DNA of 64,000 nucleotides, taken from contig CAZPFS010000003.1 in NCBI GenBank assembly GCA_964585925.1, positions 17,619 through 81,618 of the forward strand, written 5' to 3'. Source of the stretch: an uncultured Syntrophomonadaceae bacterium (lineage in GTDB: Bacteria; Bacillota; Dethiobacteria; DTU022). How positions within the stretch are numbered: the first letter of the stretch is position 1; each line of letters opens with the position of its first letter. The notes beneath the pieces are model-generated. The model saw only the letters and a program-made list of their open reading frames with translations. It was not told the origin of the DNA and did not search any database. The position numbers were made by a program, and so were the translations under genes. Positions 4,579-48,574 of this stretch are shown in pieces.

Positions 4579-6752
4579 CCGATACCCTCCCTGTAAATAC
4601 GGCCGATCTCCTCAAGCGCCAGATTGACCACCGGCCTGCCGTTATAATTGATCAGCAGCTTCTCTTCGCCCACCGACCCCAGTTCGGTCAGGGGGATATT
4701 ATATTCTTTGGCCAGGGCCGCCAGTTTATCCTGCTTTTCCGGCTTCACCGAGACCAGCACCCGGGAAGGACCTTCTCCAAACAGGGCCGCCGGGGGGTTG
4801 TCCTCGCCGGAAAAAGAGACCGTGGCCCCTTTTTTCCCCCGCAAACAACATTCGGCCAGGGTTACCGCCAGCCCCCCTTCGGAAAGATCGTGGGCTGAAC
4901 TCAAAATTTTTTCAGAGATAACCCGGCAAAGCATTTCCTGGAGCGCTTTTTCCAGCTCCAGATCTATCTCCGCCAGCAGTCCGGCCACCCGGTCATGACA
5001 GACTCTCAGGTAAAGGCTTCCTCCCAGGGAGACCCCGGAAGGCCCCAACAAATAGATTATATCGGAACTGCAGTTAAAAGCAATTTGGCAGCTTTTCTCC
5101 GGATCTTCCAACAACCCCACCGCCCCCACCACCGGCGTAGGATAGACAGCTTTTCCGTTTACCTCGTTGTAAAGGCTGACGTTGCCGCCAACCACCGGCA
5201 CCCCCAGAGCCCGGCAGGCCTCGGCCACTCCCTCAATAGTTCGCCTGAGCTGCCAGTATATATCCGGTCTCTCGGGATTTCCAAAATTCAGGCCGTCGGT
5301 AATTCCCAGGGGTCTGGCCCCCACACAGGCCAGGTTGCGGGTGGCCTCGGCTACCACCAGCATCCCCCCCAGATATGGATCCAGATAAACCAGGCGACTG
5401 TTGCCATCTACAGTAACCGCGATTGCCTGGCCCGTTTCGGGAAGCAGAATGATCCCCGCTTCCTCTCCCGGCCCCTGGGCAACCTGATGGTTTTCGGGAT
5501 CTTTGAACTGTTCCCAGATCCATTCCCGGCTCGCGCCATGGACCGAGCCGAGCAGCTTTTTCAAAACCGGGCCAAGGTCCGTCTCTGTCGGCAGCTGCTC
5601 CGGATCAAACCTTGCCAGTTGCCGATAGTACCGCGGTTCCTGTATTGCCGGAGAGTACTGCGGAGCGCCGCCGGCCACGCCGGCGGCCGGCACCTCCGCC
5701 ACCACCCGGCCCCGGTAAATGATCCGCACCAGATGATCGTCCGTCACCTTGCCGATTACATTAAAATGGAGGCCCCGTCTGGTAAAAATTTCGGCCGCCT
5801 CCCGCTCATGTTCCGGATCGAGCACCACCATCATCCTTTCCTGCGATTCGGAAATGGCGATCTCGTAATCCTCCATATTATCCGCTTTCAGCGGCACTGC
5901 GTCCAAGGTAATCTCCATTCCGGTTTCCGCCCGGGAGGCCATCTCGGTAGCGGCACAGGTGATCCCGGCAGCGCCCAGATCCTGCATACCCAGGGCCAGC
6001 TTCTTTCCGGCCAGCTCCAGGCAGGCTTCCATCAGCAGTTTTCCGGCCGCGGGATCTCCTATATGCATCGCCGTGTCCGTCTCCGGGGCCAGCTCTCCCG
6101 AAGCAAAGGTGGCCCCGTGAACACCGTCCCGGCCGGTGGGGGCGCCGGCCAGGGCCACCAGTTTTCCGGGCTCGGCAGCCTTCCCCCGGATCAACTGCTC
6201 TACCGGCAAAACCCCCACGCACATGGCATTGACCAGAGGGTTACCCTCGTAACAGTCTTCAAATGCGGCCTCCCCGGCCGCCACCGGAAGCCCCAGGCCG
6301 TTGCCGTAACCGGCCACCCCGGCTACAATCCCCTTGAACAGGTAACGACTGCGGGCGCTGCCAAGAGGGCCCAGCCTCAGTGAATTGACCAGGGCCACCG
6401 GCCTGGCCCCCATGGTGAATATATCTCTGACAATACCGCCCACCCCGGTGGCCGCCCCCTGGTAGGGGTCCACCGCCGAGGGGTGGTTATGGCTCTCAAT
6501 TTTAAAAGCCACCGCCCACCCCCGGCCCAGATCGATCACTCCCGCATTCTCTCCGGGCCCCTGCAAAACCCGTTCCCCGGTAACCGGGAAGAGGCGCAGA
6601 GATGATCTGGAGTGTTTATAGCTGCAATGTTCCGACCACATCACACTGAACATACTCAGTTCACAGTAATTTGGTTCCCGCCCCATCTCCCGGCAGATCA
6701 CCATGTATTCCTCGGCGCTCAGGCCCAGCCTCAACCATGGTTTATCTTCCAA
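4563..6752 (-). CDS. purL: Phosphoribosylformylglycinamidine synthase II (FGAM synthase large subunit)
   Basis: 729 aa. N-terminus MEDKPWLRLGLSAEEY..EPNYCELSMFSVMWSEHCSYKHS and duplicated AIRS-like domains typical of PurL. Overlaps purF by 16 nt. Confidence 0.9.
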   Translation of the reverse strand: MEDKPWLRLGLSAEEYMVICREMGREPNYCELSMFSVMWSEHCSYKHSRSSLRLFPVTGERVLQGPGENAGVIDLGRGWAVAFKIESHNHPSAVDPYQGAATGVGGIVRDIFTMGARPVALVNSLRLGPLGSARSRYLFKGIVAGVAGYGNGLGLPVAAGEAAFEDCYEGNPLVNAMCVGVLPVEQLIRGKAAEPGKLVALAGAPTGRDGVHGATFASGELAPETDTAMHIGDPAAGKLLMEACLELAGKKLALGMQDLGAAGITCAATEMASRAETGMEITLDAVPLKADNMEDYEIAISESQERMMVVLDPEHEREAAEIFTRRGLHFNVIGKVTDDHLVRIIYRGRVVAEVPAAGVAGGAPQYSPAIQEPRYYRQLARFDPEQLPTETDLGPVLKKLLGSVHGASREWIWEQFKDPENHQVAQGPGEEAGIILLPETGQAIAVTVDGNSRLVYLDPYLGGMLVVAEATRNLACVGARPLGITDGLNFGNPERPDIYWQLRRTIEGVAEACRALGVPVVGGNVSLYNEVNGKAVYPTPVVGAVGLLEDPEKSCQIAFNCSSDIIYLLGPSGVSLGGSLYLRVCHDRVAGLLAEIDLELEKALQEMLCRVISEKILSSAHDLSEGGLAVTLAECCLRGKKGATVSFSGEDNPPAALFGEGPSRVLVSVKPEKQDKLAALAKEYNIPLTELGSVGEEKLLINYNGRPVVNLALEEIGRIYREGIGCLMS

Positions 6753-6857
6753 CTGCCGCCACCTCCTTGCTATAGTCCTGCCGCCCTTGTGGTACTGCTG
6801 GCGCCCGTTCAGGCCGCCCCTTCATAAACCTGGAGCCTTTTTTTAAACCGGGCCCGA

Positions 6858-7340
6858 TCAGGAACCCCTGAGCTGCCGGTCCGCCTCCTCCACCTTCGCC
6901 GCCAGCTTCTGGCGATAGGCGGCCAATTTTTCCTGCAACCGTTCATTTCCCAGGGAAAGTATATGTACCGCCAGCAATCCCGCATTATAAGCGGCATCTA
7001 TCCCCACCGTGGCCACGGGCACTCCCCGCGGCATCTGGATTATTGAGTAAAGTGAATCCAGCCCATTCAGATGCGCAGCGGCCACCGGCACACCGATCAC
7101 CGGCAATATGGTCATAGAGGCGATTACCCCCGGCAGGTGAGCCGCCCCTCCCGCGCCGGCAATTATGATCTTGATTCCGGCATCCGCCGCCGCCTTTGCA
7201 TAACGGGCCACCTTCTCCGGATGGCGATGGGCGCTGGCAATAACCAGTTCATAACTGACCCCAAACTCCGTAAGCGCCGCCGCACTCTGTTTCATCACCT
7301 CCAGATCCGATCCGCTGCCCATTACTATCCCTACATCCAC
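6858..7340 (-). CDS. purE: N5-carboxyaminoimidazole ribonucleotide mutase
   Basis: 160 aa. [49 protein letters not shown] is the canonical PurE fold. No purK is adjacent. Confidence 0.9.
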
Positions 7341-7395
7341 ATCTGTTCCTCCTTAAATCGTGATCGACTGAACCCGTATTATTTTAGCATATTCA

Positions 7396-7624
7396 TCAAG
7401 GCGAGGACAGATCAATGAGAACACAATGGGGACCATACAATGGGGACAGACCTATCATGCAGGTCTGTCCCCATACCTTGGATCATGCAGGTCTGTCCCC
7501 ATACCTTGGATCATGCAGGTCTGTCCCCATACCTTGGATCATGCAGGTCTGTCCCCAGAAAAAGGGGACAGACCTATCTTGCAGATCCGTCCCCATACCT
7601 TAAATCTTACAGGTCTGTCCCCCA
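7396..7624. repeat. Second REP-like array between the groEL 3' end and the purE start. It holds two full hairpin units (7443-7473, 7565-7595) plus three to four tandem 28-bp half-units (ataccttggatcatgcaggtctgtcccc).
   Basis: The same ggggacagacc / ggtctgtcccc arms as the 847..1056 array. The period-28 direct repeats run 7474-7557 with no unique spacers. Confidence 0.8.
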
Positions 7625-7629
7625 GACCT

Positions 7630-9255
<1,626 letters not shown>

Positions 9256-9281
9256 TTATTTCTACCTCCTTTAACTAAAAA

Positions 9282-9569
9282 TTACTGGACCAAAGCCAGA
9301 ATGTCGTCTTGCCTGAGAATCAGATACTCTTCGCCCTTGATTTTGACCTCCGTGCCGGCATAGCGGGAAAATATGATTTTGTTCCCGACTTTTACCTCCA
9401 TCTCCAAACGGGTGCCGTTATCCAACACCTTGCCCGTTCCCACAGCCATAACTTCTCCCTCCTGGGGTTTTTCCTTGGCCTTGTCGGGAAGGACAATACC
9501 GCTGGCTGTTTTTTCTTCTGCCTCCAGAACCTTCACTACTACCCGATCTCCTAAAGGTTTAAGGTTCAT
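9282..9569 (-). CDS. groS: Co-chaperonin GroES (Hsp10)
   Basis: 95 aa. [29 protein letters not shown]... Confidence 0.95.
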
Positions 9570-9604
9570 TAAACGTCAGACCTCCTTATCACTTGGATGT
9601 GTTT

Positions 9605-9634
9605 TTAGCAGCACTCCCTGTAACCGAGTGCTAA
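9605..9634 (-). promoter_or_regulatory. CIRCE operator (HrcA binding site) in the groES leader
   Basis: ttagcaGCACTC-cctgtaacc-GAGTGCTAA matches the TTAGCACTC-N9-GAGTGCTAA consensus, with a 3-nt insertion in the left arm and a perfect 7-bp core inverted repeat at N9 spacing. It lies between the -10 and the SD of groES. Confidence 0.75.
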
Positions 9635-9648
9635 TAATCACCATAAAA

Positions 9649-9677
9649 ATATTAGCCAACTATCCCTGTACAGGCAA
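9649..9677 (-). promoter_or_regulatory. Probable sigma-A promoter of groESL
   Basis: On the minus strand: TTGCCT (-35, 9677-9672), a 17-nt spacer, TAATAT (-10, 9654-9649). It sits immediately upstream of CIRCE. Confidence 0.55.
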
Positions 9678-9832
9678 CCGGCAACACGGGCGCCCACAGG
9701 TAGAATCCAGGGGAATCAAAGCTTTTGGACAGAATACTTCTGCCTGTCTCCCTTTTGCTCCTTATTCCACCGGATCTATTATTTACCTCGAAACACAATC
9801 TATACGCTGCAAATCCAATAATAAGAAATTGC

Positions 9833-11020
9833 CTATAATACCAGTTCCCTATTTTCCGCCGGCAGTCTCCGGTAGCGATAGGGCTCCAGGGTTTTTGAAA
9901 GATCGGCGATCATCTCGTCCAATTTTTTGCTCAGAGGCAATCCGTGTCGTCTCAGGGAACAGGCCAGTATCAAGGCTATAGTTTGTGGAAAATCAATTCC
10001 CAGATACCTGGCGCTATGACAGAGAGAACCATGGTAGTTCAGGGAAGGTGTGCCGTTAACATCTATTATATATTTTTCCCCCCGATGGCATTCCTTTACA
10101 TCCACCCTTATTGCGTCGGCAGCCCCCAGGGCGCCATAGGTCTTTACCGCCAGATCGGCCAGCTCAAGATAAATTGGCTCTTCATGTCCGATGAATCTGT
10201 GGGCCAGCCCGTTCAACCCCCTGCTTTTCAGATCCGTACTCCTGATCTGCCCGGAGCCGAACCAAATCGGCGGTAAAACTATGGGCTGATCACCCCCCAT
10301 AACTGCCACTGTGTACTCGGGGCCCGGCAGGTACTCCTCCACCAAAAGGCCGGTCCCGTTTAGCAACTCCAGCAAATAGCTAGCCCGGGCCTCAAGTTGG
10401 GGTAAATTTTCAACCAGGGAACCTTCGTCTATACCCAGGCTGTTGCCCCCGCCCAAGGGCTTCACAAATACCGGGAATTGCAAACCCCGAAGATCGTGTA
10501 TTTCGGTTTGGTTGTAAATAGAGAATCCTCTGGGAGTGGGAATTCCCGTCCGTCTGAGTACGAAGTTGGTCAGCTTCTTATTCCGGCATTTGACCATCGC
10601 CTGGATACCGGAATGGCTGACCGGCAGATTCAGCTGATTGAAGGCTTTTTTTACGCAGGCCGCCCCGGAACCGTCATATATGGTTCGCGGCATATCCAGA
10701 AAACCTTCGGCAATATTGAACACAAAGTCAATCGCCGGAATCCGCTTCAGATATATTTCCAGATCCAACCGGGAAGTGAGGTTTAATTTGAATACATTAC
10801 TCCCCGTATCTTTAAGGGCAAAATATATACGCTCCACAGTGTCGGCAGTGGGGCATTCTACTAAATATGTAGCATTTTTTTCCGATTGGATAAGGTTGTA
10901 GGTAAACAAAAGATTTCCGGTCATGCGATCCCCCCAAAAATATATTTCTATTCCCCAATCCATATAGGGGCACAATATCCCCGCCGGCGGATCAAAAGAA
11001 AAATAAAGGTTAAGCTTCAA
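9833..11020 (-). CDS. ATP-grasp enzyme of the D-alanine--D-alanine ligase (Ddl) family with a divergent N-terminal domain
   Basis: 395 aa. The central and C-terminal region has Ddl-like motifs (VFVKPLGGGNSLGI, EEYLPGPEYTVAVMG, IRVDV.....YIIDVNGTPSL). The first ~100 aa are not recognisably Ddl. Confidence 0.6.
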   Translation of the reverse strand: MKLNLYFSFDPPAGILCPYMDWGIEIYFWGDRMTGNLLFTYNLIQSEKNATYLVECPTADTVERIYFALKDTGSNVFKLNLTSRLDLEIYLKRIPAIDFVFNIAEGFLDMPRTIYDGSGAACVKKAFNQLNLPVSHSGIQAMVKCRNKKLTNFVLRRTGIPTPRGFSIYNQTEIHDLRGLQFPVFVKPLGGGNSLGIDEGSLVENLPQLEARASYLLELLNGTGLLVEEYLPGPEYTVAVMGGDQPIVLPPIWFGSGQIRSTDLKSRGLNGLAHRFIGHEEPIYLELADLAVKTYGALGAADAIRVDVKECHRGEKYIIDVNGTPSLNYHGSLCHSARYLGIDFPQTIALILACSLRRHGLPLSKKLDEMIADLSKTLEPYRYRRLPAENRELVL

Positions 11021-11048
11021 GTTGTGGGTAAAGGCAAAGGAAGAACTG

Positions 11049-11222
11049 CTAGAATAGGCCCAGCTGGCAGGTAATTATCTTGATTTTCAGCCGGTTGCAT
11101 GCTTCTCCAATTTCGGATAAGGAGCAACCGGTCTCCGTAGCTATTTTGTGTGCGCTTTGACAGGACAATTTGTTTTCACTGGCCTGGCGGCAGATTATTT
11201 CATCCAGTTTTTCCGGATCCAT
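11049..11222 (-). CDS. Unannotated small ORF of 57 aa (MDPEKLDEIICRQASENKLSCQSAHKIATETGCSLSEIGEACNRLKIKIITCQLGLF), below the ORF-track size cutoff
   Basis: Strong RBS (GGAGGAGAAcgg-ATG). It sits between the metallophosphoesterase and the ATP-grasp gene on the same strand. It has five Cys residues and an HTH-like core (AHKIATETGCSLSEIGEA). Confidence 0.5.
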   Translation of the reverse strand: MDPEKLDEIICRQASENKLSCQSAHKIATETGCSLSEIGEACNRLKIKIITCQLGLF

Positions 11223-11339
11223 CCGTTCTCCTCCCCGGGTGGGTTTTAGGCTCTGTTTAAAAAGCTTTTCGGGTCTAGAAATATTCTTCCGAACCGATTA
11301 TATCACATTGGCAGGCAATTATTTCTGATGATAATGGCC

Positions 11340-11882
11340 TTAGGCCAGCGAAATTATTTTCCCGGTGACCAGCGAATTTTTCAAGGTTAGCAGACCGCAG
11401 GAAGGCTTTGAACCCCACCGGGGATCTACCGGTGATCCGGGGTTGAACATCAACACTCCCCCCTGATCCTGATTGCAGGGGCGATGGGTATGCCCAAATA
11501 TGATTACTCTGGGTTCGTATGCGGAAAAGGCGGCCCGGGCTTTCTGCATAATGGCCGCTCGGTTGCCGTCGCCATGGAGCAGGCCGATCAATATCCCGCC
11601 CGCCCGGATCAGCTTGCGGCGCCCCAATTTCCACAGGTGACCGTGATCCATGTTGCCGGCCACCGCTTCCACCGGGGCCAGGGAAGCCAGCTCCACCAGG
11701 ACGCTTTCTTCCACCAGATCCCCGGCATGTAAAATAAGATCCACCCCGTCAAAAATATTGTACAGCTCCGGGGGGAGAAAGCGCGCCCGTGAGGGGATAT
11801 GGGTATCGGAAACCACCCCGATCCGGAAAACCTGAGCGGCAGGTACAGTATCGATATTGATCAATGCCGGCTCCGTGTTCAT
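11340..11882 (-). CDS. YfcE-type metallophosphoesterase (calcineurin-like phosphodiesterase)
   Basis: 180 aa. GVVSDTHIP...LILHAGDL...GHTHRP is the MPP superfamily metal-ligand signature. Confidence 0.75.
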   Translation of the reverse strand: MNTEPALINIDTVPAAQVFRIGVVSDTHIPSRARFLPPELYNIFDGVDLILHAGDLVEESVLVELASLAPVEAVAGNMDHGHLWKLGRRKLIRAGGILIGLLHGDGNRAAIMQKARAAFSAYEPRVIIFGHTHRPCNQDQGGVLMFNPGSPVDPRWGSKPSCGLLTLKNSLVTGKIISLA

Positions 11883-12063
11883 GATTGCCCGGTCTCCCTT
11901 CGGCCGTTTCGCACAATGTGTCCCTCAAAGATCCTCCCTAACCCGGCGCCTGCATCCTGCAGGGGCGCCCGTATCAGAAGGTCGGCATATAAAACCTCCC
12001 CAAATCGGCTCAATTGTACTATACTATAAACAATATCAAAACTACAAAAAAAGAAGGCATGAC

Positions 12064-12675
12064 TTGAAAAAGAATTGCGTAACCCCTGTTGAAAACGGAT
12101 CTGCCAACAACACAGGCAGATCACTGTCAAAAATTCTGTTTATTTTTCTAAAGATCGGCTTTTTTACTTTTGGGGGAGGTTACGCCATTTTACCCATGAT
12201 CCAGCTGGAAATAGTCGACCGCCAGGGGTGGGTAGATTCGGAAACTTTCCTGGACATTCTGGTAATAAGCCAAAGCTTGCCTGGTCCCCTGGCCTTGAGC
12301 AGTTCCTTCCTGGTTGGCCGGCGGCTGCGAGGAACGGCGGGAGGTTTGATCTCTGCCTTGGGCATTGTTCTGCCCTCTTTTGCAACCATTCTTCTTCTGG
12401 CCGCTTTTTTACTGCCGGTGATCTGGGATAATGTGTTTGTGCGGGCGATCTTTTACGGCCTGCGACCGGCAGTGGTCGCTCTGGTTACCGCGGCAGCCTG
12501 GGAACTGGGGAAAAAATCCATCAAAGACCGCCCGAGTCTGCTTATATTTGCCCTGCTGCTGGCCATCTCCTTGATATTTCGACTGCACCCGGTACTGGTG
12601 CTGGCTCTTGGCGCCGCTTTGGGGCTGATTTGTTTCGGCAAACCAAAATTGCAGGCAAAGGAGCCAAAACCATGA
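12064..12675 (+). CDS. chrA: Short-chain chromate transporter family protein, first half (ChrA N-domain type). The probable start is TTG at 12064; the tracked ORF 11857.. carries a spurious N-extension.
   Basis: CHR signature LKIGFFTFGGGYAILPMIQ. RBS AGAAGG at 12048-12053. The stop overlaps the next gene's start by 4 nt. Confidence 0.7.
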   Translation: MKKNCVTPVENGSANNTGRSLSKILFIFLKIGFFTFGGGYAILPMIQLEIVDRQGWVDSETFLDILVISQSLPGPLALSSSFLVGRRLRGTAGGLISALGIVLPSFATILLLAAFLLPVIWDNVFVRAIFYGLRPAVVALVTAAAWELGKKSIKDRPSLLIFALLLAISLIFRLHPVLVLALGAALGLICFGKPKLQAKEPKP

Positions 12676-13211
12676 GTATGGCCTTACTGGCAAATCTGTT
12701 CTGGTCTTACTTCAAGATAGGTCTGTTCAGCTTTGGGGGGGGTTATGCCATGATCCCCCTGATGGAATCAGAGATCATAGCCCGTCACGGCTGGCTGACG
12801 GCATCGGAATTCATTGACATCATCGCCATTGCAGAAACCACCCCGGGTCCCATCGCCGTAAACTCGGCCACCTATGTGGGCTTTCGGCTGGCTGGAATTA
12901 CCGGTTCCGCCGTGGCCACCATCGGGGTTGTGTCCCCTTCACTGATCATTCTCCTGGCGCTGGGTTCCTTCCTGATGAATACCACAAGGCTGAAAACGCC
13001 CCCCGTGGACAGTGCTATGCGGGGGCTGCGCCCGGCGGTGATCGTTCTTATTTTGCTGGCGGTGATCTCCCTAGGCGAGGCCGGCCTGGTGGACCGGGCT
13101 ACCATTGCTATCGCCTCCGCCCTGTTCCTCAGCAGCATCATCTTCAAAATCAATCCATTCATTCTGATCGCGGCGGGAGCGGTGCTGGGACTTATTTTTT
13201 ATCCGTACTGA
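12672..13211 (+). CDS. chrA: Short-chain chromate transporter family protein, second half
   Basis: MSMALLANLFWSYFKIGLFSFGGGYAMIPL. RBS AAAGGAG 6 nt upstream of the ATG at 12672. The tracked ORF start at 12630 is probably too early. Confidence 0.7.
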   Translation: MSMALLANLFWSYFKIGLFSFGGGYAMIPLMESEIIARHGWLTASEFIDIIAIAETTPGPIAVNSATYVGFRLAGITGSAVATIGVVSPSLIILLALGSFLMNTTRLKTPPVDSAMRGLRPAVIVLILLAVISLGEAGLVDRATIAIASALFLSSIIFKINPFILIAAGAVLGLIFYPY

Positions 13212-13818
13212 GCTCCCCCTCGGGAGGAGAAAAACCGGAAGTTTCACGGATAATGGCTTTGATCAACCCTTCAATCATTTTCCACCAGGGCGGCGACAAC
13301 CACACCGGCAGCAGTGATCCGGGACCGGATGATTCATGATCCCGCCGGTAATAATCCAGGGCAATTCCGCCCAGCCTGATTTTTTTCCGGACCGTCGGAC
13401 AGGTATACAGGCAGGAAAGGGTGTGCTCCCCCACAAGTGAAATCAAACACCGTTTCGGGCAATCGGCGTCAGGGCAAACGGTTTTTACTGCCGGCACATT
13501 GATATAACCGTAACAACCGTCATTTTTCCCCACCGGCAGCCTAATTTTCAGCGAAACCAACACCAGGTTGGGGGAAAAAGGCAGGGGCACACCCTGGCGA
13601 CAGCCGAGGTAACGGCCGTAATTTTGGCGGATAGCCTGCAGATCGGCGCTGTACAGCCGGGCCAGGCGACGCAAATTCCATTTAACCGTCCGCCGGTCGG
13701 AAATAATCTCTCCGCCGGTAGTATAGATGAGCGTGCTGTTTCCTCCCTGGCGATCGTAACAGGGGATCAGCGCCGCCAACCGATCTTTGACTTTTTCCAT
13801 GGCCAACTCCTGTTTCAT
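13192..13818 (-). CDS. Cysteine-rich hypothetical protein (208 aa)
   Basis: No confident family match. Cys-rich segments include CPDADCPKRC and SCLYTCP. A weak ComK-like resemblance is unverifiable from sequence alone. Confidence 0.35.
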   Translation of the reverse strand: MKQELAMEKVKDRLAALIPCYDRQGGNSTLIYTTGGEIISDRRTVKWNLRRLARLYSADLQAIRQNYGRYLGCRQGVPLPFSPNLVLVSLKIRLPVGKNDGCYGYINVPAVKTVCPDADCPKRCLISLVGEHTLSCLYTCPTVRKKIRLGGIALDYYRRDHESSGPGSLLPVWLSPPWWKMIEGLIKAIIRETSGFSPPEGELSTDKK

Positions 13819-13954: not shown

Positions 13955-14905
13955 TTACTGCCCTTCCGCGTAAAGAGCGATCAAATCGCGGATCTGTTCC
14001 CCAATCCCTTCCTGCAAAGTAACCCGGGGGATGAAACCCAAATCTTCCCTGGCCCGGGAGGTGTCGGCATAGGTATGGGGCGGATCCCCGGCCTGCGTCG
14101 GGAGATGGTTCACTTTGATCGGCTTGCCGGCCAGCCGGCCTATTTCAGCTATAACCTCATTGACGGAAATTCTGGTGCCGCCTCCGATATTATAAACATT
14201 TCCCACCGCCCCCTCCTTGCAGGAGGCGGCCAGGTTGGCCTCCACTATATCGTCTACATAGGTGAAATCGCGGGTCTGCTCCCCGGTGCCGAATATCTGC
14301 AGCTCCTGCCGTCTGCAGGCGGCACGAATAAAGCGATGAAAAGCCATATCCGGCCTTTGTCCGGGACCATAAACCGTGAAATAGCGCAGGGAAACCGCGG
14401 GAACCCTGAAATTGCGGTAATAAAGAGTACACAGGTGTTCCGCCGCCAGTTTGGAAACCCCGTACGGGGAGACCGGTCGGGGCAGGCTTGTTTCTTTCAT
14501 GGGCAAGGAATCTGCTTCGCCGTACACCGAAGATGAAGAGGCAAATACAAACCGCTTCAGGTCGTGTTTCCGGGCCGCCTCCAGCAGACCCTGGGTAACC
14601 AGAATATTGTTGCGGGTATATATGGAAAATTCATGCCCCCAGCTGGCCCGAACTCCGGGTTGAGCAGCCTGGTGAAATACCAGATCAACATCCTCCAAAA
14701 GCCGATCGGGAGAATCCAGCAGATCCTGTTCCAACAGGGTAAAACCGGGATGTTCCCTCAGAGAACGAATATTTCTTTCTTTTATCCAGCGGGGATAATA
14801 GCCGGTAAAACAGTCCACCCCCCGCACCCGGTGCCCCTCCGCGAGCAGGCGACGGGCCAGGTGAGAGCCGATAAAACCGGCGGCCCCTGTAACCAGAGAT
14901 AACAA
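13955..14905 (-). CDS. NAD-dependent epimerase/dehydratase, GalE / UDP-glucuronate decarboxylase-like (extended SDR)
   Basis: N-terminal TGAAGFIGSHL Rossmann motif and a YxxxK active site (YGVSKLAAE). 316 aa. Confidence 0.8.
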   Translation of the reverse strand: MLSLVTGAAGFIGSHLARRLLAEGHRVRGVDCFTGYYPRWIKERNIRSLREHPGFTLLEQDLLDSPDRLLEDVDLVFHQAAQPGVRASWGHEFSIYTRNNILVTQGLLEAARKHDLKRFVFASSSSVYGEADSLPMKETSLPRPVSPYGVSKLAAEHLCTLYYRNFRVPAVSLRYFTVYGPGQRPDMAFHRFIRAACRRQELQIFGTGEQTRDFTYVDDIVEANLAASCKEGAVGNVYNIGGGTRISVNEVIAEIGRLAGKPIKVNHLPTQAGDPPHTYADTSRAREDLGFIPRVTLQEGIGEQIRDLIALYAEGQ

Positions 14906-15751: not shown

Positions 15752-16174
15752 ATGTCATTGATTCCCCATGAGCCATTTAGGTACCTGGAGAGTTTCCGGC
15801 GGGATATAGATCGCTTCATCGGTGATTTCCCCCGGCTATTTCCCGATTTAAGAATTGATGTTTACGAAACAGACAAAGAAATCATCGCCTCCTGTGAAAT
15901 TCCGGGGCTAAAAAGCAAAGACAATATTGATATCGAAATACAGGACCATACCCTAAATTTAAAAGGCAACCTGGATCACCGCCAGGAATTTAGGGAGGAG
16001 CAGATTTATCGGCGGGAACGGTATACCGGAAATTTTCAGCGCACCATTACCCTGCCCGCGGAGGTGGTGGCCGAAGAATCCAAGGCAGTCTACAGAAACG
16101 GCGTGCTTGAAATATCCATGCCTAAAGCCGGTTCCCAGGTCCAGCGTCAGAAAATCGATATAGATTTCCATTAA
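15752..16174 (+). CDS. Small heat-shock protein, Hsp20 / alpha-crystallin family
   Basis: 140 aa with an alpha-crystallin domain (..YRRERYTGNFQRTITLP..GVLEISMPK). Confidence 0.8.
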   Translation: MSLIPHEPFRYLESFRRDIDRFIGDFPRLFPDLRIDVYETDKEIIASCEIPGLKSKDNIDIEIQDHTLNLKGNLDHRQEFREEQIYRRERYTGNFQRTITLPAEVVAEESKAVYRNGVLEISMPKAGSQVQRQKIDIDFH

Positions 16175-17343
16175 TATGTTCGGGGCCGAACCGGGTCCTG
16201 CTCTGAAGGCAGATCCCGGGGGGGAGAAGAACGCCCGGGCTCAGTATCATTTTCCATGTTCTCAGAAGGATAGGCGGGCGCGGAAGGGGTAGTTTTTCCG
16301 GGCAATATTGTCCGGGGGCTTTCGCCAACCTGTACCCCGAACACCAGCTTGATAATCTCTACCCGGACTTTTTCATTAATTACCAGATAGAACAGATCCT
16401 GCCCGTCCCGGGTAATGTACTGGGGATTTCCGGGAAATGTCAGGCTCTGTATATCCCCCTCGCCTATCTCCCGTCCAAACAGAGCCAGTGCCGCCATCTG
16501 GGTACGGGTAAGATTGGTTTCCACCTGTTCAGTCAACGATCTCACAATAGCCGGCAGATCGGCCAATTTACCGGCTTGCTTGAGCTGGTTGAAAGCCGAA
16601 ATTAATATATTCTGCTGCCTTTCAATTCTTCCCAGGTCTCCATCCACTCCCCGGAAGCGAATATAATCCATAAATTGGCTGCCGTTTAAATGCTGCCCGC
16701 CTTTATCCAGCAAAAGCTGCCCGCTGCCGGGTTCCCGGATCTGCACGCCCACCTCGTAATCAATCCCCCCCAGCCGATCAATAATTGCAGCCAGGGAATC
16801 CATGTCCACCTTGAAAAAATAGTGTACCGGCACTCCGCCCAGAAAATCCTGAACCGTACCCAGCACCGTGTTTAATCCGCTCTGATGACGGTTTCCCTCT
16901 GATCCCAGATATTCATACCCGTACATATAGGCACTGTTAATTTTGTCATATTCATCCATCCCGGTTATCCGGACATAGCTGTCCCGGGGAATACTCAACA
17001 TGGTTGTTTTTTTGGTTTTAAAATTCAGGGAGGCGATCATAATCGTGTCCGGACGATAGAGGCGATACCGCTTGTCCCGGGAGGCTGTCCGGTCAAAACC
17101 CAACAAAAGTATGTTGATGATATCCCGGTCAAAATTGCGGGCCACCTCATGCCCCCAGTCTATCCCTTCCAGAGTGTTATCCGGTTTCAACACCCGCAGG
17201 GGATGATTTATATGATGATACAGGGTGAATCCAGCCGCAACCAGCCCAATCAAGCATATGCCCAAAATAACAAATCTGGTGGCTTTTTTATTTAACGGGC
17301 GACAAATATCAGCCATTAGGGTTGACCACTCCTTTTCCCCCAA
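16171..17343 (-). CDS. LytR-CpsA-Psr (LCP) family cell-envelope phosphotransferase
   Basis: An N-terminal TM helix, then the LCP core (INILLLGFD.R......R.DTIMIASLN....T.MLSIPRDSYV). 390 aa. Confidence 0.8.
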   Translation of the reverse strand: MGEKEWSTLMADICRPLNKKATRFVILGICLIGLVAAGFTLYHHINHPLRVLKPDNTLEGIDWGHEVARNFDRDIINILLLGFDRTASRDKRYRLYRPDTIMIASLNFKTKKTTMLSIPRDSYVRITGMDEYDKINSAYMYGYEYLGSEGNRHQSGLNTVLGTVQDFLGGVPVHYFFKVDMDSLAAIIDRLGGIDYEVGVQIREPGSGQLLLDKGGQHLNGSQFMDYIRFRGVDGDLGRIERQQNILISAFNQLKQAGKLADLPAIVRSLTEQVETNLTRTQMAALALFGREIGEGDIQSLTFPGNPQYITRDGQDLFYLVINEKVRVEIIKLVFGVQVGESPRTILPGKTTPSAPAYPSENMENDTEPGRSSPPRDLPSEQDPVRPRTY

Positions 17344-18706
17344 GTCGTTTGTAAAGATTCCCCGCCAGCTGGTTTATATCACCGGCGCCCATAACCAGAA
17401 TATTGTCGCCGGGACGTGCCAGTCGCACCGCCAGTTCCTCCAGTTCATCAAAATTGTCACGGGCATACACCGGGCTTGTCCGGGACCGGCTGAGCAGCCG
17501 GGCCAGCTTTTCTGAACTGACCCCCGCGATCGGTTTTTCTCCGGCCGCATAAATCCGGTGAAGCAATACCAGATCCGCCTCCTGGAAAGCACGGGCGAAC
17601 TCCTCCATAAAGTAAGCGGTACGGGTATAGCGATGGGGCTGGAATATGCAAAAAACCCGTTCCGCGTTGGTCCGGGCAGCCTGAATAGTGGCCCGGACCT
17701 CTGTGGGATGGTGGGCATAATCGCTGATAATCGTAATTCCGTTCACCTGGCCCACTATTTCAAACCGGCGGCCGGCGCCGCTGAATTGAACCAACGAGCG
17801 GGCACAGCCGTTTAAATCCAATCCCAAACAGTCGGCTACTGCAAACGCTCCCAGGGCATTGCTGATATTGTGCCGACCGGGAATGTTCATTTTTACGACT
17901 GCCACCGGCTTTTGTTTTTTGTATAAAGTAAAACAGGAACCGCGGCCGCCTGGGGAAATTTCCCCGGCATACAGATCGGCCTCCCGGTTGTCAAGGGCAA
18001 AGGTAACGGGTTCGGGTTTGATCCCCCCGGCAATCAATTTACGCAGTCTGGGATCATCTGCGCACAGCACCGCCCATCTTTCGGCATTGTTGATAAAAGT
18101 CCGGTATGCCTCCAGAAGGCGGTTGAAATCACCGCCGTAATTTTCAAGATGATCGGGTTCAATGCTCGTGACCAGTGAAATTTGGGGGCGGTATAGCAAA
18201 AAAGAGTGATCGCTTTCACAGGCTTCCGCCACCAGGTAAGGTCCCTTGCCCAAGCGGGCATTTCCCTGGAAGGTGGAGATGATACCGCCCACAATGGCCG
18301 TCGGATCAAGTCCGGCCTTTTCCAGCATCAAAGACAGCAGAGCGGCGGTAGTTGTTTTGCCGTGGGTTCCGGCTACGGCAATACTTGAGCGATCCTCCAT
18401 CAGCGCTGCCAGCAGACGCGATCGGTGCCAGAGGGGGATTCCCCGCTGGCGGGCTTCCAACATTTCCGGGTTATCTTCCGGGATGGCCGTGGAATATACC
18501 ACCAACTGGCAGTTGTCAATATTCCCGGGGTGGTGGCCGTAACAAATTTCAATCCCCTGGCGGGAAAGATGCCTGGTGATCTCGGATTCTTTTAGATCGG
18601 CACCGGAAACCTGCAGGCCCATATTCCGTAAAACCTGGGCCAGGGCGCTCATGCCATAACCGCCGATACCGATAAAATACACATGCCCTATCGATCGCGG
18701 TAACAT
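17309..18706 (-). CDS. murC: UDP-N-acetylmuramate--L-alanine ligase
   Basis: 465 aa. VYFIGIGGYGMSALAQVL...VAGTHGKTTT is the Mur ligase signature. Confidence 0.9.
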   Translation of the reverse strand: MLPRSIGHVYFIGIGGYGMSALAQVLRNMGLQVSGADLKESEITRHLSRQGIEICYGHHPGNIDNCQLVVYSTAIPEDNPEMLEARQRGIPLWHRSRLLAALMEDRSSIAVAGTHGKTTTAALLSLMLEKAGLDPTAIVGGIISTFQGNARLGKGPYLVAEACESDHSFLLYRPQISLVTSIEPDHLENYGGDFNRLLEAYRTFINNAERWAVLCADDPRLRKLIAGGIKPEPVTFALDNREADLYAGEISPGGRGSCFTLYKKQKPVAVVKMNIPGRHNISNALGAFAVADCLGLDLNGCARSLVQFSGAGRRFEIVGQVNGITIISDYAHHPTEVRATIQAARTNAERVFCIFQPHRYTRTAYFMEEFARAFQEADLVLLHRIYAAGEKPIAGVSSEKLARLLSRSRTSPVYARDNFDELEELAVRLARPGDNILVMGAGDINQLAGNLYKRLGGKGVVNPNG

Positions 18707-46192: not shown

Positions 46193-48574
46193 TTATTTTT
46201 GATCCTTGATCGCCTGCAGCACCCTTTCCGGAGTCAGGGGGAAGGTAGTCAACTCGATCCCTATCGCGTCGGCTACTGCGTTGGCAATGGCGGGACCAAC
46301 GGCAATCATAGGTTGCTCACCGATCCCGCGCACCCCAAAGGGACCGTCTTTTTCCGGTGTTTCCAAGGCAAATCCCTTTAGATAAGGGGTGTTCTCAATA
46401 GTTGGTATCTTGTAGTCGGTAAAGTTCGGATTTAAAATTCGGCCTTGGTCCAACTTGATCTCCTCATAAAGGGCGGTCCCCAGACCCATAATAGTCCCCC
46501 CGTGGATCTGAACCAGGCATTGCTGCGGGTTTACCGCCTGCCCCACATCCAGAGCCGTGGCCAACTGCAGGACAGTGATTTCACCAGTTTCCGGGTCTAC
46601 CTCCACCTCGGCTGCAGTAGCTCCAAAGGTCCAGAACATGCCTGGATTCCCCTGCCCGGTTTCGGGATCAAGATTGGTCATCTTGGAAGGAATATATGAT
46701 CCCCGGCCGATGATCGGCCCATGGATCCCCTCGCCGGTAGGCTTTTTATAGCTGTCGGCCAGGATTCTCAAAGGAACCTGTTTCGATCGGTCCTTTTTCC
46801 AGTATACCGTGTCATCTTCCAGTTCCATTTCCCCGGCCGGCACCCCCAGCTCCAGTGAACCCAGTTCCAGTATCTGCCGGCGGGCATCTTCCGCGGCCTT
46901 TATCACCGCATGCCCCAAAGCATAGGTGGTCCGGCTGCCTACGGTCTGCCACTCGTAGGGACTGTAATCGGTATCGGGAATACGGATGGCAAATTTCTCC
47001 ACCGGGATTTTCAATGTTTCAGCGGCAATCTGGCACATGGCGGTCAGCATGCCCTGCCCCATCTCGGTTGCGCTTACCGAAAGATGAACGGTACCGTCCT
47101 CATTAATCCGGATAATCGCCGAGGAGGAAGCATTGCTGGGCTGGGCCGGCGCTTTCACCAGACCGGCCAGACCTTTTCCGCGGAATTTCCCGCTATCCCG
47201 CTTACGCCACTCCACCGCTTCGGCTGCCGTCCGCAGGCAGTTCATAAAAGATGAATCCTCTATTTTCTGTCCGGTAGCGGTAGTGGATCCCTCTTTCATT
47301 CCATTGAGGAGACGCACATCCAGCGGGTCCAGTCCCAGTTTTTTAGCAATTTCATCCATTTGCCGTTCAATGCCCCACTGCATCTCGCACATGCCAAAGC
47401 CCCGCACCGGGCCGCCTACCGGGTTGTTGGTATAAACACAATAAGAATCCGTCTTGATATTTGGAATATCATACGCCCCGGCAGAGCTGTAAGCCGCCGC
47501 TCGGGTAATATTTACACCATATTCGGTGTAAGCCCCCCCGTCCCAGATCATTTTGTACTCCATGGCCGTGATCCGGCCATCTTTGCGCACCCCGGTTTTC
47601 AGGTGGCCATACATCGCCTGGCGGGTAAAAGTGCACTGCATATCTTCTTCCCGGGTGTACACTACGCGCACGATGTATCCGGGGCATTTTCTGGCCAGGG
47701 GTATAACCAGCCCCTCCATGGTGGCCCCGGCTTTGCCGCCGAACCCGCCGCCGATATAACTGGAAACGACTCTAATTTTGTGCAGGGGCATCCCCAGACA
47801 TTTGGCCAACAGTTGCCGCACGGTAAACGGAGACTGGGCGGTGCTCCAGACCGTCAACTTACCGTCAAAGCCCCATAGAGCGGCCGCTTTATGGGTTTCT
47901 ATGGTCACATGCTGCATCTGAGGAACATAGTAATCCCCTTCGATGATCAGATCTGCCTCGGCAAATCCCTCTTCCACATTCCCTTTGCGGATTTTGCTGT
48001 GATTGCTGATGTTTGTTCCCGCTTCAGGGTAAAAAATAGGAACAACCTCGTAGCTCCCCAGATCCTCATGAATCAATGGCGCGCCGGGTTTCATCGCCTC
48101 CAGGGGATTGAATACCGCCGGAAGTTCTTCGTATTCCACCTGGATCAGATCTACAGCCTGTTGGGCTATATCTTCCGTGGTGGCAGCAACCGCGGCCAGC
48201 GGTTCTCCGAAAAAGCGGACCTTATCCACGGCAAAGAAAGTCCGGTCAACCAGATAAAGCCCCACCCGGTTACGGGAACATTCTTTCCCGGTCGCTACTG
48301 CCCTTACGCCCGGCAAAGCCTCCGCCCGGCTGGTATCTATCCGTTTTATCCGGCCGTGGGGGATAGTCGATTTTTTAATTTTGGCATAAAGCATGGGGGC
48401 CATGCTCAGATCCTCAATATATCTGGCACTGCCGGTCACCTTTTCCTCCGCTTCTATCCGGGAATATGTTTTCCCCACATAGGTTAAGGATGGCATATTT
48501 TCTCCTCCTTTCCTCCTTACTTGGAGCAGGCTTTGATCGCCTGCCGGATTTCCTGATAGGCCCCGCAACGGCAC
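46193..48574 (-). CDS. Xanthine dehydrogenase-family molybdopterin-binding large subunit (purine hydroxylase, SDMH context). The probable start is ATG at 48496 ([11 protein letters not shown]..).
   Basis: Aldehyde-oxidase/xanthine-dehydrogenase a/b hammerhead and MoCo-binding domains across ~770 aa. Strong RBS AGGAGGAGAAAAT before 48496. Confidence 0.85.

Follow-up and report, generated by a model that had tools for sequence, protein, structure and literature searches.

Gene S of an uncultured Syntrophomonadaceae bacterium belongs to a widespread family of small cysteine proteins with a possible tie to molybdenum and tungsten cofactor biosynthesis

The delivery of molybdenum (Mo) or tungsten (W) to molybdopterin in anaerobes, and the discrimination between both metals, are incompletely understood. 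Several small, non-catalytic proteins, such as the Mop/molbindin TOBE proteins, MobB, XdhC, and the carriers of the molybdenum cofactor (Moco), are encoded in or beside Moco operons. Here, another small gene, designated S, was analyzed in a stretch of 64,000 nucleotides (nt), referred to as the window, from an uncultured Syntrophomonadaceae bacterium (NCBI GenBank assembly GCA_964585925.1, contig CAZPFS010000003.1, positions 17,619 to 81,618). A first-pass annotation, made from the letters of the window, had placed S in a three-gene unit with a metallophosphoesterase and a divergent Ddl-family ATP-grasp ligase. The explanation that now accounts best for the whole evidence, and that is considered rather probable, is that S is a real gene, that it forms no module with the ATP-grasp ligase, and that its product serves as a thiol-ligand accessory protein of Moco or of the tungsten cofactor (Tuco).

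The gene and its translation signal are located as follows, where aa stands for amino acids and HTH for helix-turn-helix:
11049..11222, minus strand: S, a 57-aa stand-alone single-domain Cys-containing HTH-like protein of the C...CQLGxF family.
11228..11234, minus strand: Shine-Dalgarno sequence GGAGGAG, read from the sequence, 5 nt before the ATG of S.

Read from 11222 to 11049 on the minus strand, S specifies the 57-aa product MDPEKLDEIICRQASENKLSCQSAHKIATETGCSLSEIGEACNRLKIKIITCQLGLF, which contains five Cys residues (positions 11, 21, 33, 42, and 52). The strong ribosome-binding site and the five cysteines described in the first pass are thereby both confirmed. The description of S as unannotated holds only for the open reading frame track used at that stage, as the public gene calls for the source contig contain S as a 57-aa product without a Pfam match. 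Comparison with the nearest orthologue, which lies in locus L047 and shares 68% identity, gave a dN of 0.23 and a dS of 1.15, that is, a dN/dS of ~0.2. Because of the strong Shine-Dalgarno sequence, the many homologues described below, the low dN/dS, and the public gene call, S is regarded as established to be a genuine protein-coding gene, beyond a chance open reading frame.

By running phmmer with S against 1.84 billion cluster representatives (50%-identity clusters), 422 homologues could be detected at E<=1e-3, 46 of which passed E<=1e-10, with the best E-values reaching 4e-16. A profile built from 11 stand-alone homologues extended the family to 2318 90%-identity clusters, all of which, where named, are called "hypothetical"; a word-indexed search for homologues with S alone as the query returned nothing beyond S itself. 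The S-family domain comprises ~55 residues and is widespread among anaerobes, including Bacillota, Chloroflexota, Deltaproteobacteria-type, and other lineages. Its commonest form is a tandem two-domain protein of 127-145 aa, and the stand-alone copies have 56-86 aa. No additional Pfam domain was found in the longer members (156-202 aa). In P0004 (295 aa) and P0080 (358 aa), the tandem unit is fused, in one protein to the C-terminal half of HemD (uroporphyrinogen-III synthase) and in the other to an alpha/beta hydrolase. The S family is a large, uncurated set of hypothetical proteins, of which S is one further member.

Conservation within this family is centered on a few positions. In the alignment of stand-alone forms, C21, G39, K48, I49, C52, Q53, and G55 are invariant, and L54, C56, and F57 are conserved in at least 90%. 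In 83 tandem proteins, all four Cys residues that correspond to C21 and C52 in the two repeats are invariant. The first invariant Cys of the domain is located at the N-terminus of helix 2, and the second within a C-terminal K-I-x-x-C-Q-L-G-x-F tail. All family-defining positions (C21, G39, K48, C52, Q53, G55, and F57) are present in the S of the window according to three alignments. Among its five Cys residues, only C21 and C52 are family-invariant; C42 occurs in 44% of the stand-alone forms, and C33 is restricted to a subclade. A further Cys in the tail, C56 (CQLGCF), is typical of stand-alone members and occurs in 10 of the 10 stand-alone homologues from an unbiased search.

The genes and elements around S in the window are the following:
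11340..11882, minus strand: YfcE-family metallophosphoesterase, 180 aa (Metallophos_2, E=7.7e-34; TIGR00040, 107.8 bits, cut-off 56.25).
9833..10924, minus strand: divergent Ddl-family ATP-grasp ligase, 363 aa (Dala_Dala_lig_C, E=8.9e-17), between S and groES.
9608..9634, inverted repeat with no strand given: controlling inverted repeat of chaperone expression (CIRCE), the HrcA operator, with 2 mismatches to the consensus and 0.01 matches expected by chance.
9282..9569, minus strand: groES (Cpn10).
7630..9255, minus strand: groEL (Cpn60).
12064..13211, plus strand: split chrA pair (203 + 179 aa; Chromate_transp in public gene calls), divergent from the phosphoesterase and forming the left border of the block.

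The phosphoesterase, whose identification as a YfcE-type enzyme was upheld by a TIGR00040 score above the curated cut-off, lies directly upstream of S on the same strand, with a gap of 117 nt. It is an ordinary member of the YfcE family and may be co-transcribed with S. According to the three-gene proposal, the phosphoesterase, S, and the ATP-grasp ligase would act as one module, either in regulated ligation of amino acids or peptides or in the modification of a small molecule. In its favor, the three genes are adjacent and co-directional both in the window and in locus L047, and in L047 the stop of the phosphoesterase gene overlaps the start of the ATP-grasp gene. Gene order was therefore compared from both sides. 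On the ATP-grasp side, 45 genome loci with an orthologous ATP-grasp gene were searched up to 6 kb to either side, as far as the contig reached. Neither S, sought by a small-domain hidden Markov model (HMM) that recovered the S of the window as a positive control (E=4e-30), nor the phosphoesterase, sought by phmmer, was found within 6 kb in any of these 45 loci. On the S side, 80 metagenome loci were collected by a scan pattern that required CQLGC and that biased the sample to one subtype; an orthologous ATP-grasp gene was present in 1 of the 80, namely L047, and the other 79 lacked it.

The details of individual loci point to the same conclusion. In L047, the proteins encoded are closely similar to those of the window (GroEL 94%, phosphoesterase 76%, S 68%, and ATP-grasp 63% identity), and the order differs, running phosphoesterase, ATP-grasp, S, CIRCE, and groES. 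The window and L047, alone in having all three genes, thus disagree on their arrangement. In locus L001 (GroEL 91% and ATP-grasp 59% identity to the window), the order is chrA pair, ATP-grasp, groES, and groEL; the chrA pair abuts the ATP-grasp gene directly and leaves no room for S and the phosphoesterase, so that this genome lost or never had these two genes, and its ATP-grasp gene is still found beside groES. In four loci (L054, L060, L084, and L085), the phosphoesterase gene is followed co-directionally by S at gaps of 20-35 nt, without the ATP-grasp gene. Three of them (L060, L084, and L085) continue into CIRCE and groESL, with GroEL 79-84% identical to that of the window, and L054 ends just after S. 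In another four loci (L057, L081, L104, and L118), S precedes CIRCE-groESL without the phosphoesterase. Moreover, an epimerase gene at 13955-14905 of the window is syntenic with the epimerase gene of L084. Among the 80 S loci, the phosphoesterase-S pair is absent outside the clade of the window.

These comparisons indicate that the phosphoesterase-S pair is conserved only within the clade of the window, and that the older arrangement of this clade was (epimerase ...), phosphoesterase, S, CIRCE, groES, and groEL, without the ATP-grasp gene. S stands before groESL in members of the clade, whereas for the ATP-grasp gene the proposal fails the refuting condition set in the first pass. The ATP-grasp gene is a recent arrival beside S, found there only in the immediate lineage of the window and at different positions in the window and in L047. 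Its pairing with S is a local accident of gene order rather than a conserved functional unit. The proposed three-gene unit, whose members occur together in the window and L047 only, is unsupported because of the co-localization in 0 of 45 and 1 of 80 loci and the differing order of the window and L047, and it is now considered highly improbable. The slot held by the ATP-grasp gene in the window is occupied by MoeA or MoaB genes in L082, L104, and L118. For the window itself, the apparent module is best viewed as a lineage-specific juxtaposition beside groESL, which is not worth pursuing as a ligation system.

One further adjacency of an S homologue and an ATP-grasp gene weighs against the separation of the two. 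At L127-L129:3053-5423, the genes for a tandem S homologue and for another Ddl-like ATP-grasp protein are divergently oriented, a second and independent case that may be due to chance. It was rejected as support for the module on the grounds that this ATP-grasp protein belongs to a different subfamily, with 30% identity over the C-terminal two-thirds, and that its operon partner is not a phosphoesterase. The operon partner is an unannotated protein of 171 aa, and genes for PALP enzymes, NifS, and NifU are located nearby.

CIRCE lies between the ATP-grasp gene and groES, and it was also found upstream of groES in 9 of the 9 relatives in which the upstream region of groES is available. Its position before groES marks groESL as a heat-shock transcription unit of its own. 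Membership of S in a CIRCE/HrcA heat-shock unit was also considered and was rejected, as CIRCE is downstream of S.

Clustering of the neighbors in the 80 S loci revealed several lineage-specific syntenies, including (i) a thioredoxin-reductase-like gene, S, GGDEF, ClpB, and DnaJ; (ii) a LeuA_dimer protein, S, and CstA; (iii) topoisomerase I, a MobB-like protein, S, CcsA/HemX, and HemA; (iv) an LPG-synthase-like gene, S, and Pil genes; and (v) the groESL type treated above. A tetrapyrrole context recurs, in that CcsA/HemX and HemA lie downstream of S in 7 loci. Across these context types and across phyla, Mo/W-cofactor biosynthesis is the sole neighbor theme. MoeA or MoCF_biosynth genes were present in 16 of 96 S-family loci (560 kb) and in none of the 45 ATP-grasp loci that served as a control (503 kb). 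The enrichment is significant by Fisher's test (p 0.0014), and the value becomes ~0.05 once related loci are collapsed to ~7 architectures.

The single cases are more informative than this count. It has been reported that Moco RNA motifs regulate genes for the biosynthesis, transport, and utilization of Moco/Tuco (PMC2408646). In L087, a full-length Moco riboswitch (RF01055) was found at 5791-5930 on the plus strand, scoring 84 bits where the gathering score is 36. A stand-alone S comes immediately after it, at about 5995-6168, and is followed after 10 nt by MoeA at 6178-7416. By this layout, S is the leading gene of a moeA operon under riboswitch control. Several other architectures show a similar association. 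In L118, S is followed after 17 nt by MoeA, and then by MoeA-PBP_like, MoaB/Mog, a protease, and CIRCE-groES; in L104, the order is S, MoCF_biosynth, and groES. At L139:138-10160, the tandem protein P0181 ends a co-directional run of MoeA, MoeA-PBP_like, XdhC (XdhC_C), and a MocA-like gene (NTP_transf_3), and this run faces ThiS/MoaD, a second MocA-like gene (NTP_transf_3), and three subunits of a molybdoenzyme of the xanthine dehydrogenase (XDH) type. A tandem member abuts MoaE in L135, and another one in L133 is accompanied by DUF1847, DUF134, and a NifX-like Nitro_FeMo-Co protein. In addition, S comes after a MobB-like gene in 7 loci, and in 3 loci it is followed by a gene for a MoaA-like radical-SAM/ArsR fusion. 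This family-level link with Moco/Tuco, which is the new element of the present analysis, is suggestive, and a Moco/Tuco-related role of the family is judged about evenly balanced.

An XDH/aldehyde-oxidase-family molybdoenzyme large subunit is encoded at 46193-48574 of the window on the minus strand (Ald_Xan_dh_C, MoCoBD_1, and MoCoBD_2), 35 kb from S. Its presence indicates that the organism of the window uses Moco.

Several observations count against a role of S in Moco or Tuco metabolism. The S of the window has no Moco biosynthesis genes nearby, the XDH-type molybdoenzyme being the only related gene and lying far off; a tblastn search of the 64-kb window for the MoeA, MobB-like, and radical SAM neighbors found none of them. 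About 80% of the S-family loci have other, lineage-specific neighbors. The Moco riboswitch is represented by one clear case, and Rfam found none in the other ~100 loci. The S-family loci are not phylogenetically independent, the control set comes from different taxa, and, as noted above, the sample of 80 loci is biased to one subtype. For the mechanism proposed below, a weakness is that the S of the window carries Leu at position 56 (CQLGLF), which is odd for a stand-alone member and usual at this place in the first repeat of tandem forms.

Alternatively, S could be a general thiol protein without a specific tie to Moco, such as a small protein with an Fe-S cluster or Zn, a carrier of persulfide, or a factor associated with redox processes or chaperones. 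The Moco neighbors would then merely mirror the metallocofactor environment of anaerobe genomes. This explanation agrees with the invariant Cys residues of the family and with the neighbors seen in other loci, such as ferredoxin, flavodoxin, NifS/NifU, cysteine-synthase-type PALP, CooC/CooT, NifX-like proteins, DUF364, thioredoxin-reductase-like proteins, AhpC, and HemA/HemX, as well as with the HemD fusion and the proximity of groESL or ClpB/DnaJ in two separate context types. However, Moco genes are the sole class of neighbors that recurs over several unrelated architectures, and this class has operon-like gaps of 10-17 nt and a Moco riboswitch. The CIRCE element between S and groES also puts S outside the HrcA-controlled unit. 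A general thiol protein is regarded as quite unlikely.

The predicted structure of S raised another possibility. With tandem homologues serving as the input alignment, AlphaFold2 returned a confident model of S with a predicted local distance difference test score (pLDDT) of 84, consisting of a helix (3-13), a strand (18-20), two helices (21-31 and 35-45), and a final strand (48-50); the tandem form was modeled with a pLDDT of 80. The order of these elements (H-E-H-H-E) is winged-HTH-like in the model, which is consistent with the HTH-like core suggested for S from its sequence in the first pass. As predicted, the fold seems to be a generic HTH-like bundle with no specific structural relative. 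Searches of PDB sequences with the single S sequence and with the family profile yielded nothing below E ~0.1.

On this basis, S could be a small winged-HTH transcription factor that senses a metal or the redox state. The stand-alone form would act as a homodimer and the tandem form as a pseudo-dimer, the Cys residues would respond to Mo/W, to another metal, or to the oxidation of thiols, and the targets would be neighboring genes (Moco genes elsewhere, and the phosphoesterase or ATP-grasp gene in the window). Weak matches of some family members to HTH_10, Xre-like-HTH, HTH_36, and MarR_2, and the position of S at the head of moeA operons in L087, L118, and L082, are in line with this idea. 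On the other hand, it is the two Cys residues and the KIxxCQLGxF tail, rather than the putative recognition helix, in which conservation of the family is concentrated; in helix 3, E37, G39, and N43 are conserved and basic residues are few. The S of the window is acidic, with an isoelectric point (pI) of 5.7 and a net charge of -1.4, and the median pI of the family is ~7.9. No curated HTH family reaches its threshold, non-DNA-binding helical domains (the N-terminal domain of NuoE, NfnC, and uL11) match the model structurally as well as HTH domains do, and the operon of L087 is already under riboswitch control. The conservation pattern and the acidity argue against a classical DNA-binding role without excluding it, and a regulator of this kind is considered unlikely.

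If S is an accessory protein of Moco/Tuco, as preferred here, the invariant residues suggest how it might work. The stand-alone protein would probably form a homodimer whose four thiolates are arranged as in the tandem proteins. The 2+2 invariant thiolates of the dimer could serve as ligands for a metal species, for a cofactor, or for a sulfur species (persulfide), and S would act in Moco/Tuco biosynthesis, probably alongside MoeA-type metal insertases, or in Moco handling. It would pass Mo/W, a thio-metalate, Moco, or a persulfide to these insertases, and might contribute to the selection of Mo versus W. This specific thiolate-carrier mechanism is put forward tentatively and is, on balance, doubtful. 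With similar reserve, it can be imagined that the C...CQLGxF family as a whole is an unrecognised component of the Mo/W-cofactor machinery of anaerobes, in the form of a dimeric or tandem four-thiolate protein that supplies MoeA-type insertases, with the S of the window as a stand-alone orthologue; this is a possibility rather than an expectation.

The ATP-grasp ligase constitutes a separate lead. Its most likely start is the ATG at 10924, where 16 of the 16 aligned homologues begin; the TTG at 11020 chosen earlier (395 aa) adds 32 spurious residues. The Ddl-like nature of its catalytic half was borne out by the match to Dala_Dala_lig_C, the only domain of this kind that passes in the Pfam scan, in which Dala_Dala_lig_N was not found. 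The N-terminal part, which had been called unrecognisable, is conserved within the subfamily, and the alignment with NF002378, a Ddl model of NCBIfam, starts at residue 32. Solved structures of the Ddl/Van family can be aligned with the central and C-terminal ATP-grasp domains; with the subfamily profile, the alignment covers only residues 90-331 (3r23, E=7e-33). The scores against the Ddl families of NCBIfam were 99.1 bits for NF002378 (cut-off 243) and 70.3 for TIGR01205 (cut-off 245.65). An ordinary second housekeeping ddl, one of the cases named in advance that would undo the original proposal, was rejected, as the scores lie far below the Ddl cut-offs and the protein belongs to a distinct subfamily of sporeformers. 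The invariant motifs of this subfamily are C24, AEGF, CRNK, and IDVNGTPSL, and its members are confined to sporeformers, including Neomoorella, Calderihabitans, Thermanaeromonas, Alkalihalobacterium, Evansella, Anaerobacillus, and many metagenome-assembled genomes of Bacillota.

The neighbors of the ATP-grasp gene vary among loci L001-L045 and include ABC exporters, FtsW/RodA/SpoVE, MurJ, GerA with a spore permease, and FeoB. The recurrence of SpoVE/FtsW, MurJ, and Ger neighbors, together with SipL in L047, is a hint of an envelope or sporulation function, a lead that is independent of S. At L047:1246-4479, only 2 nt separate the end of the gene for a SipL-like sporulation protein (SPOCS + LysM, 501 aa) from the phosphoesterase gene downstream of it. 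This short gap and the overlap of the following stop and start suggest that SipL, the phosphoesterase, and the ATP-grasp ligase are encoded in one transcription unit in that locus. In the window, a Mur-ligase-family gene (17309-18706) and a LytR_cpsA_psr gene (16171-17343), both on the minus strand, are located 6-7 kb from the ATP-grasp gene, and they may represent an envelope context of this gene rather than of S.

Other scans of the window provided few additional features. No Rfam match was obtained at E<=1 between 9000 and 13500, and promoter and terminator scans of 9200-12200 performed no better than on shuffled sequence and did not settle the operon structure. An open reading frame of 202-208 aa at 13192-13818 (minus strand), between the chrA pair and the epimerase gene, has no Pfam match and no homologue in the related loci examined. 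At 7454-7557, immediately after the stop of groEL, a 28-bp unit is repeated perfectly in tandem (3.7 copies, 100% match), with a degenerate array of 1.9 copies beside it at 7576-7630. A 43-bp array of 4.1 copies at 881-1057 has the core GGGGACAGACC in common with the repeats near groEL, in opposite orientation.

No curated family includes S. The HMM searches called for earlier, carried out with Pfam and NCBIfam on S and on nine of its homologues, gave no family above threshold, and the nearest one was DUF7645 (PF24655). This is the sole curated family with recurrent similarity to the S family, matching 35 of 77 stand-alone homologues at E<=0.1 (best 7.5e-6). The match extends from helix 1 to helix 3, and the CQLGxF tail falls outside it; the S of the window scores 13 bits (E=0.1), below the gathering cut-off of 27. 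The S family is probably a distant relative of DUF7645, which is itself uncharacterised. In the literature searched for DUF7645 and for CQLGCF, no paper was found. This leaves a very widespread small Cys protein of anaerobes that has neither a curated family nor any literature that could be found, and, if the proposed role holds true, a new small Moco accessory protein would be a concrete and cheap biochemical target.

With respect to structure, the model of S has an HTH-type fold in common with FapR, NiaR, the ArsR/SmtB-type CzrA, homeodomains, and the C-terminal domain of uL11. It differs from winged-HTH and tri-helical HTH regulators in that no such sequence family is reached at threshold, in that its conserved sites are the Cys residues and the tail instead of the recognition helix, and, for the S of the window, in that the basic DNA-binding surface is absent. 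The N-terminal helical domain of NuoE/NDUFV2, HoxF, and FdsB/FdsG and the small NfnC subunit are among its nearest structural likenesses. Proteins of the Mop/molbindin and MobB types have TOBE beta-barrel or P-loop folds, whereas S is helical, with an unrelated fold and no sequence similarity to them. What the S family has in common with Mop/molbindin, MobB, XdhC, and the Moco carriers is its genomic position beside MoeA, MoaB, XdhC, MocA, and MoaE.

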